Source: Thermodesulfobacteriota bacterium
Lineage (GTDB): Bacteria; Desulfobacterota; GWC2-55-46
Direction of reading: 5' to 3'
NCBI GenBank assembly: GCA_030583865.1
Contig: CP129479.1
Coordinates: 1,476,744 to 1,540,743, forward strand
Length of the DNA: 64,000 bases
Positions 2,754 through 52,401 of the stretch are shown piece after piece (position 1 is the stretch's first letter; each line of letters begins with the position of its first letter). The notes under the pieces are model-generated. The model ran no database searches and was not told where the DNA came from. It was given only the letters and a program-made list of their open reading frames with translations. The translations under genes and the position numbers were made by a program.

Positions 2754-2836
2754 GCTCTTCAAAAACCTCTCCTGGAATGTGATAAAACCCTTGCGGGCTG
2801 GAAACTCTATATGCACGCCTGCTGGAAAAGGACTTC

Positions 2837-2905
2837 TGGGGGAAACTTTCTGTAGAAAGGTTCCCCCAGAACCCCTGACTTTTAGTTCCTGAGAAGACCC
2901 CCAAG
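2837..2905. repeat. palindromic repeat family C copy 1
   Basis: gggggaaactttctgtagaaaggttccccc + agttcctgagaagaccccca; related to 29797-29900. Confidence 0.6.
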
Positions 2906-7046: not shown

Positions 7047-7090
7047 CTAGTTTTCGCAATCCGTATAGTCGCTTTACGCTTTTAGCTTAT

Positions 7091-7232
7091 GGCAACCTCT
7101 AAAAATCAGAAATTTTTCCTGCAATCAAGGAAGGGCGGGAATAAAAAGCGGAGCATATATGTGAATATGTGAGCATTTTTATTCACGCCCTGACGCAGAG
7201 TCCGGGTAAAATAGCAATTTTTAGAGGTTGCC
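7091..7232 (+). mobile_element. MITE family B copy 1 (16-bp TIR GGCAACCTCTAAAAAT ... ATTTTTAGAGGTTGCC)
   Basis: Perfect 16-bp terminal inverted repeats; flanked by TTAT/TTAT; between ilvC start and ilvN stop. Confidence 0.85.
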
Positions 7233-7718
7233 TTATCTCTGCTTGGGGCTCCGGGCCATTGCCACCCTTCCGGTCCGGACGATCTCCTTTATGCCGAATG
7301 GGCGGAGTAGCTCGGTAATGGCCCGTATCTTCTCCTCGTCCCCGGTTATCTCTATCGTGTAGGTCCGGGAGCTTACGTCAACGACCTTGGCCCTGAATAT
7401 GTCGACTATCGAGAGTATCTCGGCCCTGGTCTCGGCGTTGAGGTTCACCTTTATGAGGGCGAGCTCCCGCTCGATATGCTCCTCGCCGGTGAAGTCGTAT
7501 ACCTTGATGACGTTCACGAGCTTGTTCAATTGCTTGTTTATCTGCTCGAGGACTTTGTCGTCGCCGCTCGTGACGATGGTCATCCGGGATATCTTCGGGT
7601 CGAAGGTCTCGGCCACCGAGAGGCTCTCGATATTGAAGCCCCGCCCGGAGAAAAGTCCCGATATGCGCGATAGCACGCCGAACTCGTTGGTTACAAGGAC
7701 CGATATCGTATGACGCAC
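7233..7718 (-). CDS. ilvN: acetolactate synthase small (regulatory) subunit
   Basis: 161 aa; ACT domain ISVLVTNEFGVLSRISGLFSGRGFNIESL. Confidence 0.9.
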   Translation of the reverse strand: MRHTISVLVTNEFGVLSRISGLFSGRGFNIESLSVAETFDPKISRMTIVTSGDDKVLEQINKQLNKLVNVIKVYDFTGEEHIERELALIKVNLNAETRAEILSIVDIFRAKVVDVSSRTYTIEITGDEEKIRAITELLRPFGIKEIVRTGRVAMARSPKQR

Positions 7719-11713: not shown

Positions 11714-12436
11714 TTAGCGACCGCTTTTAAGCTCTGCTTCGGATTTCCGGAGGTATATCGGGACGAGCTCCGCCGGAGAGACGGCCTCCGCCGCGTGCTC
11801 GAAAGCCAGGAGCCCTACGTTAGAAGCCCTTATGTGCCAAAGGTGGGGCAAGGCCGCGTACGCGTCCCTGAGCGCCTCGACGAGCATTTCCATGTAAACG
11901 GAAAGGCCGCTCCCCAGGAATACGACTTCCCCCTCAAGCCCCCTCCCCCTTATTTCCCCTATGAGGGCCTCGGGCCGCATCGCCGAATCGGGCATGACCG
12001 CCCTGGGGCGGCCTGACATGGTATCGTAAAGGGCGGTGTATACCTCGCCCTTTCTGGCGTCGAGCACCGGGCAGACCATCCTTGCGGAATAAGGGATGTT
12101 CATGGCGAGCGAGGCGAGGGTCGAAACACCGGCTATCTTTTTCCCCTGCGGCCACGCGAGCCCCTTTAGGGCCGATATGCCGATGCGGAGGCCAGTGAAT
12201 GAGCCCGGGCCGACATCAATGGCGAAGAGGTCTACTTCGTCGAGCCCGCACCCGGCGCTCTCAAGGTGCGCTTCAAGGGACTTAAGGAGCCAGCTGGAAT
12301 GGGTCCCCGCGTCCCCGACGGTCCATTCGGAGATGAGCTTTCTATCTTCGAGGAGGGCTATCGAGCCTGACCGGGACGAGGTATCGATTGAAAGTATCTT
12401 CAGGCAACCTCTAAAAATTAGATAATTTTCCCGCAA
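11714..12436 (-). CDS. tsaB: tRNA threonylcarbamoyladenosine biosynthesis protein TsaB (YeaZ)
   Basis: KILSIDTSSRSGSIALL and VGPGSFTGLRIGIS motifs. The annotated ATG start (12434-12436) lies inside the MITE copy at 12403-12545, so the true start is uncertain. Confidence 0.7.
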   Translation of the reverse strand: MRENYLIFRGCLKILSIDTSSRSGSIALLEDRKLISEWTVGDAGTHSSWLLKSLEAHLESAGCGLDEVDLFAIDVGPGSFTGLRIGISALKGLAWPQGKKIAGVSTLASLAMNIPYSARMVCPVLDARKGEVYTALYDTMSGRPRAVMPDSAMRPEALIGEIRGRGLEGEVVFLGSGLSVYMEMLVEALRDAYAALPHLWHIRASNVGLLAFEHAAEAVSPAELVPIYLRKSEAELKSGR

Positions 12437-12545
12437 TCAAGAAAGGGCGGAAATAAAAAGCGGAGCATATATGTGAATATGTGAGCATTTTTATTCACGT
12501 AACCTACGCAGAGTCCGGGGAAAAGGTCAATTTTCAGAGGTTGCC
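12403..12545 (+). mobile_element. MITE family B copy 2
   Basis: Same termini (1 mismatch); internal segment aaaaagcggagcatatatgtgaatatgtgagcatttttattcacg identical to copy 1; flanked by TTCA/TTCA. Confidence 0.85.
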
Positions 12546-12553
12546 TTCAATGC

Positions 12554-13855: not shown

Positions 13856-13896
13856 TTCCTATCTCAATTCAAGCGTGATTTTGGCGTAAATTTCTG

Positions 13897-13998
13897 GCAG
13901 CCCCTAAAAATCAGAGATCTTCACCCGAATCAAGGAAGGTCGGGGTTATTCCCGGCCTGACGCAGAGTCGGGGAAAAGATCAATTCTTAGAAGTTGCA
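13897..13998. mobile_element. MITE family B copy 3 (shorter, degenerate)
   Basis: ggcagcccctaaaaatcag ... caattcttagaagttgc; shares gcctgacgcagagtcgggg core with copy 1. Confidence 0.55.
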
Positions 13999-29738: not shown

Positions 29739-29796
29739 CCGGTCCCCGTTGAATTAGGCCGAAAAGGCGAGCCGGCAGGTTACTGAAAAGCCCCCT

Positions 29797-29900
29797 TTGG
29801 GGGAAACTTTCTATAGAAAGTTTCCCCCCACCCCCCCTTCAAAGATTAGTTGTTCCTGAGATGACCCCCATGAATGGGGGTCATCTCAGGAACAACTAAA
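29797..29900. repeat. palindromic repeat family C copy 2
   Basis: Perfect palindrome ggaaactttctatagaaagtttcc (29802-29825) flanked by C/G runs; perfect 24-bp-stem hairpin tagttgttcctgagatgaccccca / tgggggtcatctcaggaacaacta (29848-29898). Sits in the 5' region of the archaeal-type MAT gene. Confidence 0.7.
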
Positions 29901-35340: not shown

Positions 35341-35500
35341 GCCTATCAGGACGTTGAAAAAGTCTTTCCTGGACTTTTTCAACCACGGCCTGGCCGGAAT
35401 GAATCCGTCCAAGCCTCATAAATTGCTCGACATTTTCAGCCATTGCAATTTGGCAATCCATCCGTGGATTGCTTAGCAGGGTGTTTTTCAACACCCTGCT
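35341..35500 (+). repeat. repeat family A, full copy (hairpin 1 at 35353-35383, hairpin 2 at 35475-35500)
   Basis: ~90% identical to revcomp of 55078-55245. Terminal hairpins gttgaaaaagtc..ggactttttcaac and agcagggtgtttttcaacaccctgct. Lies between convergent stop codons. Confidence 0.85.
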
Positions 35501-36908
35501 ACCCCCTTTTCCACCCGGAAGGGGCGCTCCCCGGCCCCTTTATGCCCAGCTCGCGCATCTTGAGGAGGAGCGTATTCCTGTGGATCTTGAGCGCCCTCGC
35601 CGTTTCAGCCCTGTTCCAGTTGGCCTTGTCCAGCGCGCCTTTTATGTAGCGCCTCTCGAAGGCCTTGACCGCTTCCTTGAAATCCAGCGTCATCTCCTTT
35701 CCCGGAGCCGCCTCGTCCGCTAGCGCCGGCATGCCCATCGGCAGGTCGTCGGCCCTTATGAGACCCCCCTCGGGCGCGAGCACCACGAGCCTTTCCAGGA
35801 GGTTTTCAAGCTCCCTGATGTTCCCGGGCCACCCGTAATCCATGAACGCCCTTATGACCTCCGGATGGACCCCCTCCACCCTCTTGCCGCACTTCTTGGA
35901 GAGCTTTTCGAGGAAATGCTCGACGAGCAAAGGCACGTCCTCCTTCCTCTCCCTCAAGGGCGGGAGCTCTATGGGCACAACCTTGAGCCTGTAGAAGAGG
36001 TCTTCCCTGAAGCGGCCCGCCGAGACCTCGTCCTCAAGGCGCGCATTCGACGCCGCTATCACCCTTATGTCGATCGTGATGGAAGAATTCGAGCCGACCC
36101 TTTCGAAGGACCTCTCCTGCAGCACCCTTAGGAGCTTTATCTGGAGGTGCATGGGTAGCGTCGATACCTCGTCAAGGAAGAGCGTGCCAGTGTCGGAGTG
36201 CTCGAACTTCCCGATCTTCCTCTGGTGCGCCCCGGTGAAAGCCCCCCTCTCGTGCCCGAAGAGCTCGCTTTCCATGAGCTCTGATGGCACCGCCCCGCAG
36301 TTCACGGCCACGAAGGGCTTCTCCCTCCTGTCGCTCATGAAATGAATGGCCCTTGCGACGAGCTCCTTGCCGGTGCCGCTCTCGCCCGTTATGAGCACCC
36401 CTGACGAGGTCCTGCTCACCGCCTGCATGAGCCCGAAAACCTTCCGCATCGCGGGCGACCTGCTTATCATCTCGCCGTTCAGGTACCTGAGGCCGTTCCG
36501 CTCGTTAAGCTCTTCCTTGAGGAACTCGATTTCGCTCTTGAGCTTAAGCCCTTCGGACAGCCTCGATAGTGTGGCAAGGAGCTCATCCCCGTCAAAGGGC
36601 TTGGCTATGTAGTCGTAGGCGCCTTTCCTGAGGGAGGATACCGCCTGCTCGGCGCTGTCGAGGGCGGAGAGCATTACGACCTCGATCGAGCCGTCGAGCT
36701 CCTTCAACCGCCCGAGCGTTTCAAGCCCGTCCATGCCCGGCAGCTTAAGATCCAGGAGCACTATTTCCACCGGCCTCGAACGTGCCAGAGAGAGGGCCTC
36801 ATGGCCGGTCCGGGCCTTCAGGACCTCATAGCTCTCCCTGAGGAGTATCTCGAGCGCGCCCGTTACGAAATCGTCGTCGTCCACTACGAGGACAAGTGGT
36901 TTTCTCAT
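35499..36908 (-). CDS. sigma-54-dependent response regulator (NtrC family: REC-AAA+-HTH)
   Basis: VLVVDDD receiver; GESGTGKE Walker A; GAFTGA sigma54-contact motif; C-terminal HTH. Stop codon lies in terminal hairpin of repeat A copy. Confidence 0.85.
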   Translation of the reverse strand: MRKPLVLVVDDDDFVTGALEILLRESYEVLKARTGHEALSLARSRPVEIVLLDLKLPGMDGLETLGRLKELDGSIEVVMLSALDSAEQAVSSLRKGAYDYIAKPFDGDELLATLSRLSEGLKLKSEIEFLKEELNERNGLRYLNGEMISRSPAMRKVFGLMQAVSRTSSGVLITGESGTGKELVARAIHFMSDRREKPFVAVNCGAVPSELMESELFGHERGAFTGAHQRKIGKFEHSDTGTLFLDEVSTLPMHLQIKLLRVLQERSFERVGSNSSITIDIRVIAASNARLEDEVSAGRFREDLFYRLKVVPIELPPLRERKEDVPLLVEHFLEKLSKKCGKRVEGVHPEVIRAFMDYGWPGNIRELENLLERLVVLAPEGGLIRADDLPMGMPALADEAAPGKEMTLDFKEAVKAFERRYIKGALDKANWNRAETARALKIHRNTLLLKMRELGIKGPGSAPSGWKRG

Positions 36909-37085: not shown

Positions 37086-38462
37086 TTATGCCAGATCTGC
37101 TGAAGCGTCTTCGTTCTCTATCCCATAACTCCTGATTTTTCTATAAAGATGACTCCTTTCTATGCCTATGGCCTCGGCGGTCCGGGCGATGTTCCCCCCG
37201 AACTCCTTGAGTTTCCTTGAGATGAATTCCTTTTCAAAGTCCTTCCTGGCCTCCTTGAGGAGATCGCTCCTGGAGATGAAGCCAGGCTGGACGGACTGGG
37301 AACCTTTGATATACGCAGGGAGGTCGCCGGACGTTATCGTATGGGAATGGGTCATTATGACGAGCCTCTCCATGAGGTTCTTAAGCTCCCGGACGTTCCC
37401 CGGCCAGTCGTACGAATAAAGCATCTCCCTGGCCTCGGGGCTTACGGAGAGGACTTCCCTTGCCGTCTCCCGCGCGAACTCCTTGAGGAAATGCTCCATC
37501 AAAAGGGGTATGTCTTCCCTCCTCTCCCTCAAGGGCGGGACATGGAACGGTATCACGTTGAGCCTGTAATAGAGGTCTTCCCTGAACCTCCCTCTTGCGA
37601 CCTCCTCGCTCAGGTTCTTGTTGGTGGCGGCGATCACCCTGGTATCGACCGTGATGAGCTCGGTCCCCCCCACCCTCTCAAAGCTCTTCTCCTGGAGGAC
37701 GCGGAGTATCTTGGCCTGTGTCCTGAGGCTCATGTCCCCTATCTCGTCCAGGAATATGGTGCCCTTGTCGGCCAGGTCGAACTTGCCCTTTTTCTGGGCC
37801 AGTGCGTTCGTGAACGCGCCCTTCTCATGCCCGAAGAGCTCGCTCTCGATAAGCTCTTCGGGAATTGCCGCGCAGTTGACCTCGATGAAAGGCCTTCCCG
37901 ACCTGGTCGAGAGGAGGTGTATGTTCCTTGCGACAAGCTCCTTGCCGGTGCCGTTGTCACCGGTTATGAGTACCCATGAATTGGACGGGGCCGCCTTCCT
38001 TATATCGGCCTTGAGCGACTGTATGGCCTGGGAGCCGCCTATTATCTCGAACCTGGCGCCGACCTTCTGCCTGAGGTTGCTGTTCTCCTCGGTAAGCCTC
38101 TTCTGCTCTATGGCGTGCTCGACCGTAAGGGTGACCTTTTCGAGCGAGAGCGGCTTTTCGATGAAGTCGTAGGCCCCGAGCTTGGTCGTCCTTACGGCCG
38201 TGTCTATGTTGGCGTGCCCGGATATCATTATGACCGGCAGGCCCGGGTGCCTTGATTTAATCTCCTTCAGGGCCTCGACCCCGTCCATGCCCGGGAGCCA
38301 GATGTCCAGGAGCACGGCGTCGGGCTGCCTGACCTCGAGTTTCTTAAGCCCCTCCTCGGCGCTACCGGCGGTAACGACCTCGTGCCCCTCGTCCTTGAGG
38401 ACGCCTAGGAGCGCTTCCCTTATCTCTTTTTCGTCGTCGATTACCAGGACTGTCGTCTTCAT
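37086..38462 (-). CDS. ntrX: sigma-54-type response regulator, NtrX-like
   Basis: 458 aa; REC + AAA+ (GDNGTGKE, GAFTNA variant) + HTH; 4-nt overlap with upstream kinase. Confidence 0.78.
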   Translation of the reverse strand: MKTTVLVIDDEKEIREALLGVLKDEGHEVVTAGSAEEGLKKLEVRQPDAVLLDIWLPGMDGVEALKEIKSRHPGLPVIMISGHANIDTAVRTTKLGAYDFIEKPLSLEKVTLTVEHAIEQKRLTEENSNLRQKVGARFEIIGGSQAIQSLKADIRKAAPSNSWVLITGDNGTGKELVARNIHLLSTRSGRPFIEVNCAAIPEELIESELFGHEKGAFTNALAQKKGKFDLADKGTIFLDEIGDMSLRTQAKILRVLQEKSFERVGGTELITVDTRVIAATNKNLSEEVARGRFREDLYYRLNVIPFHVPPLRERREDIPLLMEHFLKEFARETAREVLSVSPEAREMLYSYDWPGNVRELKNLMERLVIMTHSHTITSGDLPAYIKGSQSVQPGFISRSDLLKEARKDFEKEFISRKLKEFGGNIARTAEAIGIERSHLYRKIRSYGIENEDASADLA

Positions 38463-41439: not shown

Positions 41440-41580
41440 GGCAATCTCTAAAAATCAACCTTTTACCCGGATTCCGTTCAGACGTGGATGAAAATGCACA
41501 CATATTTATCATGCATGTATGCATCGATTTTTATTCCCGGCCTTTATTGCGGGAAGAATCTCAAATTATCAGAGGTTGCT
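41440..41580. mobile_element. MITE family B copy 4 (diverged)
   Basis: ggcaatctctaaaaatcaa ... aattatcagaggttgct termini; different internal sequence. Confidence 0.55.
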
Positions 41581-52066: not shown

Positions 52067-52401
52067 GATAATTAGAGCTCAGGATCCGGGACCATCCCCC
52101 CAGTGCCGTCCCTGCTCGACCAACTCACAATAAAAAAACCGTCACGGCACCGCATCCAGCAATCGTAAATGCTGAATGTTTGGCCCAGACGGTCGGCAAG
52201 CGCACTGTTATTCCCGCTCCCCGGTGGTTGCCCACCTTGATTCCGTCAGTTACGGGAAAATTTTATGGGGAATTTATTAGAAACATCTTAATCCAGGACC
52301 GCGGGCCTTGTCAAGGATTAATCGAATTGAAATCCCGGTGCGGAAGCCTTTCCGGCGTACCCTGCCAAAGCGCAGGGGACATTGCAAATTGCCCGGCGCG
52401 C

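Follow-up and report, generated by a model that had tools for sequence, protein, structure and literature searches.

Four Copies of a Probable IS5-Group Miniature Element in a 64-kb Stretch of a Thermodesulfobacteriota Genome

Repeat copies between minus-strand genes

A repeat of ~142 bp occurs four times in a 64,000-nt stretch of the genome of a Thermodesulfobacteriota bacterium (contig CP129479.1; the whole stretch is termed the window, and positions are counted from its first nucleotide). The copies are situated between ilvN and ilvC, rseP and tsaB, dxr and rseP, and a glutaredoxin-like gene and a DUF4390 gene. All of these genes lie on the minus strand, and the gene pairs, which had been named in a preliminary description of the same DNA, were backed by Pfam and by annotated homologous loci. 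We regard the four repeats with high confidence as copies of a non-coding miniature transposable element with inverted repeats (MITE) that bears the termini of an insertion sequence of the IS5 family, IS5 group (IS1194-like).

The window was scanned with the terminal 16-mer GGCAACCTCTAAAAAT, allowing up to three mismatches. Eight matches were obtained, forming four inward-facing pairs 103-143 bp apart, whereas 0.33 matches were expected from shuffled sequences and none of 100 shuffles reached eight. The presence of four copies was thus confirmed, and a search with a family profile built from ten full-length copies yielded no fifth copy in the window. The termini are perfect in copy 1 and carry one to three mismatches in the other three copies. 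Perfect 16-bp termini had also been ascribed to copy 2, but its right terminus deviates at one position (ATTTTCAGAGGTTGCC). Copies 1 and 2 are ~91% identical. Copy 3 is degenerate, as had been stated, but starts one nucleotide earlier than reported (13896, not 13897); it measures only 103 bp because ~40 central nt are deleted. The second copy classed as degenerate, copy 4, was placed at the right coordinates. By the family profile it reached 77.7 bits in minus-strand and 29.3 bits in plus-strand orientation and is therefore an inverted, fairly good copy rather than one with a diverged core. Its apex is diverged.

The element, which encodes nothing, is a 142-bp body able to form a hairpin, on which only the 16-bp inverted termini (GGnnnCCTCTAAAAAT) and ~10 nt of subterminal sequence have been kept. 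Stop codons are carried by the terminus at +12 (TAA) and +19 (TAG). Each full copy folds as a single long imperfect hairpin (DNA fold z = -7.6 for copy 1 and -5.3 for copy 2), and the G+C content of the elements is ~40% compared with 58% for the window. Neither promoter-like nor terminator-like sites were found inside the copies. Rfam 15 covariance models gave no match to the element at gathering score, only one at chance level (E = 0.11), and nothing credible was returned for related scaffolds under gathering and E-value thresholds.

Table 1. Coordinates of the element copies, their flanking duplications and the candidate tsaB start codons
Feature	Position	Strand	Remarks
MITE copy 1	7091..7232	+	142 bp; perfect 16-bp inverted termini GGCAACCTCTAAAAAT/ATTTTTAGAGGTTGCC; between ilvN and ilvC; 150 bits against family profile
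Copy 1 left duplication, TTAT	7087..7090		flank reading
Copy 1 right duplication, TTAT	7233..7236		7233-7235 is the ilvN stop codon (TAA on - strand)
MITE copy 2	12403..12545	+	143 bp; rseP-tsaB junction; 141.7 bits against family profile
Copy 2 left duplication, TTCA	12399..12402		TGAA on gene strand
Copy 2 right duplication, TTCA	12546..12549		overlaps ancestral tsaB TTG start (12548-12550, - strand)
Candidate replacement tsaB starts	12401..12436	-	CTG at 12401-12403; in-frame TTG at 12434-12436 inside MITE
MITE copy 3	13896..13998	+	103 bp; degenerate termini; dxr-rseP spacer; 47.7 bits against family profile
MITE copy 4	41440..41580	-	141 bp; inverted relative to copies 1-3; between glutaredoxin-like gene and DUF4390
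Copy 4 left duplication, TAAA	41436..41439		flank reading
Copy 4 right duplication, TAAA	41581..41584		flank reading

Duplications and empty orthologous sites

The flanking tetranucleotides originally given for copies 1 and 2 were correct, and an unreported duplication, TAAA|TAAA, was recognized around copy 4. The flanks of copy 3 have decayed (TTCT|TTTA), and perfect 4-bp duplications are thus seen in three of the four window copies. A larger set comprised 61 short elements with both termini, 58 from the listed 16-mer loci of many phyla and three from the window. Identical 4-bp flanks were present in 41 of them, whereas randomly re-paired flanks gave 7.3 (maximum of 17 in 2000 shuffles). When the registers were shifted by 1-3, only 0-1 identical 4-bp flanks were found, and flank identity peaked sharply at 4 bp, with 2 cases at 2 bp and 3 cases at 3 bp. 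The 4-mers seen at two sites were thus upheld when more copies were aligned. Among the duplicated tetranucleotides, which are A/T-rich, TTAA was the commonest (14/41), followed by TTTA (6), ATAA (4), TAAA (3), and TTAT (3). Some duplications are without TA (TTCA/TGAA, AGAT, ACCA, TCAA).

These data bear on the type of the parent element, for which the preliminary description had offered IS5-like and IS630/Tc1-like candidates. A MITE of the IS630/Tc1-mariner type would duplicate TA; the targets are indeed A/T-rich and many contain TA, but the sharp peak at 4 bp and the TA-less duplications contradict this type, and elements with these termini encode DUF772 plus DDE_Tnp_1 proteins rather than DDE_3/Tc1 transposases. 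An IS630/Tc1 parent was ruled out by the length of the duplication, and we give this alternative next to no credence; of the two candidates the IS5-like one was retained.

Syntenic loci were reached via RseP homologues. The nearest relative was represented by the UBA5799-like contigs L122/L123 (RseP 92% identical), which probably belong to the same species as the metagenome-assembled genome (MAG) UBA5799 (GCA_002418185.1). In L122/L123, rseP and tsaB are 3 nt apart, and the junction contains no element and a single TGAA. It reads GGATAGGCCTTGAAGATACTG, compared with GGATAGGCATTGAA-(143 bp)-TGAAGATACTT in the window, i.e. TGAA once versus twice. The longer alignment of the same junction is ...TTCGGATAGGCCTTGAAGATACTGGCAATCGAC... 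in the relative and ...TTCGGATAGGCATTGAA-(143 bp)-TGAAGATACTTTCAATCGAT... in the window. This is a textbook empty site. The window has a dxr-rseP spacer of 178 nt; in the nearest relative this spacer is free of the element and measures 66 nt. UBA5799 also lacks the element in its grx-DUF4390 spacer; since this spacer aligned poorly near the site, the case is taken as absence, not as a clean empty site. In a more distant relative (L124, RseP 76%), the ilvN-ilvC spacer is 60 nt long and holds no element. The check for unoccupied sites suggested at the outset was thus positive. A copy of its own is located in the rpsB-tsf spacer of L124; in the window this spacer is ~32 nt by estimate and without a profile match. 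UBA5799, too, bears its own copies elsewhere (L057, L095). The family has therefore been independently active in sister lineages.

Within the species of the window, copy 4 was present in contigs from four other samples and copy 3 in contigs from five. Five independent short-read assemblies (L252-L256, 3' ends) all stop at one base, 51 nt into copy 2 (window 12495). Copy 2 is therefore present in those five samples, and the fixed break implies that its inner sequence is repeated enough to break de Bruijn graph assemblies; the MITE copies thereby explain fixed break points in short-read assemblies of this species. Because copies 2, 3, and 4 were found in all same-species contigs from other samples, they post-date the split from the nearest species and appear to be fixed within their own. 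The recent mobility claimed earlier is accordingly a relative matter, recent meaning since the split from the sister species. That insertions recur in independent assemblies from at least five samples and that homologous copies exist in several genomes refutes, together with the count of terminus matches, chance similarity or an assembly artefact, and we consider the probability of either to be negligible.

In the ilvN-ilvC region, a different repeat came to light. A small hairpin repeat, GGGGGAAACTTTCTGTAGAAAGGTTCCCCC, is located at window 2822-2867 and 29783-29828 and also at L001:1-25. In an SRR28430726 contig with identical IlvC, it lies ~50 nt upstream of ilvC, and the local sequence differs from the MITE-proximal spacer of the window. 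The ilvN-ilvC spacer therefore seems to be polymorphic between strains.

The insertions adjoin or alter gene boundaries. Copy 1 touches the stop codon of ilvN, the TAA of which belongs to the duplicated ATAA (gene strand). Copy 2 is situated 8 nt past the rseP stop codon, and copy 3 lies directly downstream of a TATAAT-like box, also conserved in the nearest relative, that precedes rseP. The insertion of copy 2 split the ancestral TTG start codon of tsaB and severed it from the gene; this TTG now opens a 7-codon dead-end frame running into copy 2. A new start call, either CTG or a TTG inside the element, is therefore required for tsaB. The CTG consists of the last C of the MITE and the TG of the duplication and reads CTG AAG ATA CTT..., and the terminus of copy 2 supplies AGAGG a few nucleotides upstream of it. 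The in-frame TTG is located 11 codons upstream of the CTG, within copy 2. Judged from the reading frame, tsaB would start at one of these candidate codons. Gene boundaries are thus shifted by the copies, with the ilvN stop inside a duplication and the tsaB start split, and annotation should mask them as a mobile repeat instead of taking them for regulatory sites.

Parent transposase type and insertion preference

An exact scan with the 16-mer, using one genome per species, returned at least 120 loci. Among the matches listed, dozens of different short elements (36-300 bp) open with the 16-mer and each close with the inverted sequence; they occur in Planctomycetota, Omnitrophota, Bacteroidota, Thermodesulfobacteriota, Firmicutes, Spirochaetota, and Gammaproteobacteria. 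Judged in their sequence context, most of these matches are not due to chance, and the expectation that the termini recur elsewhere was borne out in the window and in other genomes.

Full-length elements with such termini were also found. One of 1234 bp (L065:235-1468) has GGCAACCTCTAAAAAT at its start and ATTTTTAGAGGTGACC at its end; its 342-aa product, a DUF772 plus DDE_Tnp_1 protein, matches the NCBIfam model 'IS5 family transposase' NF033581 (IS5_4) with 279 bits against a cut-off of 140. A second full-length element (L099) encodes a transposase 46% identical to that of L065, and L015 holds a truncated form. Of the elements named in plasmid annotation, IS1169/IS1168 (52%) and IS1194 (49%) were the closest. 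A copy of IS1194 in a Lactococcus plasmid has the ends GGGCACCTCTAAAAAC ... TTATTAGAGGTGCCC and is 1200 bp long; the literature on IS1194 gave no statement of its end sequences. An abundant 335-aa transposase, P0224, is 72% identical to that of L065 and was seen at ten different insertion sites, always in an element of ~1255 bp with the ends GGTAACCTCTAAAAAT/ATTTTTAGAGGTTCCC. Perfect 4-bp duplications surround this element at 6/10 sites (TTAT, TAAA, AAAA, ACAA, TATT, ACAA). In the P0224 element, the type of transposase is thus tied directly to the type of terminus and to the length of the duplication.

The window element shares with IS1194 and its IS5-group relatives the terminus type GGnnnCCTCTAAAAA(T/C) and the 4-bp duplication at A/T-rich sites found on full-length relatives, and their DUF772 plus DDE_Tnp_1 transposase would recognize the MITE ends. 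It differs in being 142 bp long, without a transposase gene, and in having a body unrelated to their interior. Lineage differs as well, the named relatives stemming from Firmicutes, Bacteroidota, and Lentisphaerae. On the strength of these sequence comparisons, the parent type is assigned to the IS5 family, IS5 group (IS1194-like), because the duplications are 4 bp long and often TA-less and because IS5-family DDE transposases are the products of full-length elements with such ends.

The long hairpin whose arms stay complementary resembles REPINs, and an element that a tyrosine (HUH) transposase (e.g. RAYT) moves in the form of a single-stranded hairpin, i.e. a REPIN-like or IS200/IS605-type element, was weighed as an alternative to an IS5-group MITE. 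REPIN/RAYT and IS200/IS605 systems insert without target-site duplication. In the family analyzed here, however, variable 4-bp duplications are the rule, the empty site holds one copy of the tetranucleotide, and the termini match those of elements with DDE transposases. Judged by duplications and termini, no search aimed at a RAYT gene having been made, this alternative is highly improbable.

Using tblastn, no IS5-type transposase was detected in the window, in the loci of its relatives, or in 730 kb of metagenome DNA surrounding members of the family; the statement that the transposase is not encoded in the window thus holds. Over all gathered loci, the only tblastn matches were in L065, L099, and L015, and a profile search for the parent transposase in the lineage of the window returned gut-type relatives only. 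The parent in this lineage is therefore one that we infer. The Thermodesulfobacteriota MAG SPRUCE 593 contains the exact 16-mer in five or more identical element ends, all of them at the ends of contigs and with the interior unassembled.

On these grounds, the following mechanism is proposed for the IS5-group MITE. A DUF772 plus DDE_Tnp_1 transposase, encoded elsewhere in the genome or formerly present, would bind both termini and excise or copy the element. Integration would proceed via a 4-bp staggered cut at A/T-rich tetranucleotides (TTAA > TTTA > ATAA/TAAA/TTAT...), leaving 4-bp target-site duplications. In a genome of 58% G+C, tolerated A/T-rich sites would be mostly TAA stop codons and short spacers, which would be why the copies abut gene ends. 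The duplication would regenerate the stop codon of ilvN and restore the start-codon context at tsaB. In this lineage, mobilization would presumably occur in trans from a parent copy, and neighboring gene expression may be affected.

Abundance was judged from several collections. Copies 84-90% identical to those of the window occur in at least four other Deltaproteobacteria/Thermodesulfobacteriota MAGs (H5_GWC, UBA5799, NC_groundwater_376, NC_groundwater_1638). A metagenome scan with the central motif of the family returned at least 120 loci (L127-L246), and on the metagenome loci listed the family profile gave at least 151 distinct matches in 730 kb, ~30 of them beyond the seeds. Extrapolation from four copies per 64 kb and from the metagenome matches suggests some tens of copies in each megabase, which for a whole genome would come to the order of 10^2. 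The very high genomic copy number proposed at first thus has indirect support only. The plasmid collection gave no blastn match to the family, and the apex motif described below was absent from viral contigs in a motif scan. Synteny of the window with the genome loci from the terminus scan was not detected beyond the elements themselves and two weak matches (~66-68%) over conserved genes.

A stop codon of an open reading frame (ORF) of at least 100 aa lies within -15 to +25 nt of an element end in 29/45 dereplicated two-ended copies. It is often exactly at the junction and in some copies inside the terminus, and no copy of the dereplicated set is located inside a long ORF. Neighboring gene pairs are more often convergent than divergent (13:5 and 6:2). 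Most simply, the survivors at TAA stops and in 3' spacers would be explained by A/T-rich target preference together with purifying selection. An orientation bias was considered and rejected: an early 8/8 among stop-abutting copies was gone with more copies (15 right-end-only versus 8 left-end-only), and between co-directional genes there was no significant bias (19 versus 11, p = 0.20, and 7 versus 3). The family can serve as an example of an A/T-rich target preference that funnels insertions onto TAA stops in a G+C-rich genome. It is also a clean natural example of an IS5-group terminus (GGnnnCCTCTAAAAAT) conserved across many phyla and acting as the source of many unrelated MITE bodies.

Several unusual arrangements were recorded among elements with these termini. 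Head-to-tail arrays of two or three window-family copies with fused, degenerate junction termini (L236:704-1117; L229:7166-7439; L158/L183/L184/L243) suggest tandem amplification by unequal recombination rather than separate insertions. Elements of 36 bp consist of two 16-bp termini and a 4-nt joint (e.g. GGCAACCTCTAAAAATTGCAATTGTTAGAGGTTGCC); they were seen at L009:7500-7535, L042:5277-5312, and L084:5593-5628 and 732-767, in unrelated gut and environmental genomes, with matching 4-bp flanks in 1/4. A 291-bp element (L106:5280-5570) has perfect termini and a TGAA duplication. Sequence with a GTCATTGCGAGGAGC...GAAGCAATCTC motif has taken the place of its left part, and this motif is found too in the same-terminus MITEs L010, L063, L085, and L119; by its composition it is classed as a chimeric or nested MITE. 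In a Gammaproteobacteria MAG (OZ241347.1; L064:1453-3391), two inward-facing termini are 1.9 kb apart, and the interior is largely an IS110-family transposase gene (DEDD_Tnp_IS110 plus Transposase_20). The locus has the appearance of a short element with these termini into which an IS110-type insertion sequence has inserted. The IS110 family targets palindromic repeats.

The hairpin, known repeat systems and other features of the window

The two arms of the hairpin change in concert. Terminus positions 3-5 vary among subfamilies yet stay complementary between the ends (GGCAACC/GGTTGCC, GGGTGCC/GGCACCC, GGCTGCC/GGTAGCC, GGCCACC/GGTGGCC), and the inner stems behave likewise. On 36 distinct copies, 91.3% of cells were paired compared with 40-56% when the partners were slid. 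In 15/49 pairs both sides had changed, and none of 500 shuffles reached the observed values, although relatedness of the copies inflates such counts. Template switching at quasi-palindromes can yield paired changes without selection.

The apex of the hairpin is formed by a motif of ~30 nt, AAAA-GCGGAGCATATATG-N2-5-ATATGTGAGC-ATTTT. Its conservation in the metagenome set is by ascertainment, since these loci were picked by the apex motif. In a set selected by the termini (scan with two to three mismatches), GCGGAGCATATATG-N-ATATGTGAGC was recovered in 12 family copies, each with at most about three substitutions; copy 4 was not recovered. Two families were distinguished among the apex-selected metagenome loci. 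Like the window family, the second one is 142 bp long and has this apex motif; its ends are GAGCCTGTTTGA.../...TCAAACAGGCTC (e.g. L146:4286-4388, L144, L150). Identical 3-bp flanks of the TNA type (TTA, TAA, TGA, TCA) surround 21/30 of its copies, compared with 8.5 in shuffles, and none are identical at 4 bp. Outside the apex motif, no significant similarity was found between the arms of one family and those of the other (p = 0.09 and 0.23). The motif was also seen on at least four further scaffolds (L186/L197, L188, L240, L210), the stems of which are self-complementary but different.

One copy of the second family (L238:981-1077) overlaps a cobalamin riboswitch match on the minus strand (L238:859-1097; 37.3 bits against a gathering score of 31.5) that spans 239 nt for a 189-nt model, as if the MITE lay in a variable loop of the riboswitch.

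These features would be expected if the hairpin were primarily a functional structured element, RNA or single-stranded DNA with a conserved apex (e.g. a site of mRNA 3'-end processing or stability or a protein-binding site), for which the transposon termini are a mere vehicle. Co-variation of the arms, the apex in terminus-selected copies, and its recurrence on a family with different termini and dissimilar arms all speak for this view. On the other side, the copies are absent from orthologous sites of close relatives, occur in both orientations without significant transcription bias, contain neither promoter-like nor terminator-like sites, and match no Rfam family. The co-variation may arise by template switching without selection, and the conservation of the motif in metagenomes follows from how the loci were chosen. 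Compensatory changes are moreover known from bcr1, a mobile small repeat of the Bacillus cereus group, where they keep the double-stranded structure (PMC3184786). We therefore consider a primarily functional hairpin unlikely. If the shared apex reflects selection, the conserved part would be an inner hairpin with a near-invariant apex, a functional module riding whichever transposase is available; we put this forward as a tentative idea of low, though somewhat higher, probability. In that case the apex could be a protein-binding DNA site, a structured RNA, or a site promoting its own transfer between hairpin loops.

Assignment to the IS5-group MITE type rests on what was observed: the anatomy of the copies, the duplications, the unoccupied orthologous sites, and autonomous elements matching in termini, transposase type, and duplication length. 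A number of results weigh against it. The partner transposase of this lineage was not found in the loci searched, and it is from other phyla that the autonomous elements with matching termini stem. The E. coli element IS5 targets YTAR; the targets of the present family are A/T-rich, yet do not strictly follow that sequence. Perfect 4-bp duplications are kept in only 13/45 dereplicated copies of the 142-bp family, and many copies are therefore old. Neither the compensatory changes in the arms nor an apex motif common to unrelated scaffolds is required by a plain MITE model, and together they pose a small puzzle about how hairpin MITEs evolve.

The Correia/NEMIS repeats of Neisseria and the ERIC repeats of enterobacteria appear analogous to the window element, as hairpin MITEs of ~100-160 bp with high copy number in short operon spacers. 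They are co-transcribed with their neighbors and duplicate TA, and their termini differ from those of the window element. Their effects on transcripts (promoters, RNase cleavage) have been documented experimentally, whereas the window element is described here from its sequence. A bacterial MITE is recognized by its stable hairpin between flanking direct repeats, by termini resembling those of an intact insertion sequence, and by orthologous sites that occur both filled and empty (PMC3184786). All of these were found for the window element, which hence is a MITE. Nezha and other reviewed bacterial MITEs have the same properties (PMC3184786) and differ in host phylum, parent family, and sequence. 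The bcr1 repeats parallel the arm co-variation but have direct repeats of 5 bp, form a cruciform of two stem-loops, and are unrelated in sequence. The kind of element is thus well known and an ordinary type of bacterial repeat. For the particular family, no prior description was found in the literature: the terminus and apex-motif sequences were not met there, and work on MITEs in Deltaproteobacteria offered nothing specific.

Other features of the window are unrelated to the MITE. Its sole Rfam match is a ZMP/ZTP riboswitch (RF01750) at 52176-52263 on the minus strand (63.5 bits against a gathering score of 39). A 48-nt repeat (TGGCAATCCGTCCGTGGATTGCC...GGTGTTTTTCAACACCCTG) at 1-48 and 35451-35498 is 92% identical between its two copies and presumably corresponds to the first repeat family of the preliminary description. 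The segments 35901-36404 and 37476-37979, which are 70-74% identical and spaced by 1575 bp, look like tandem paralogous genes.

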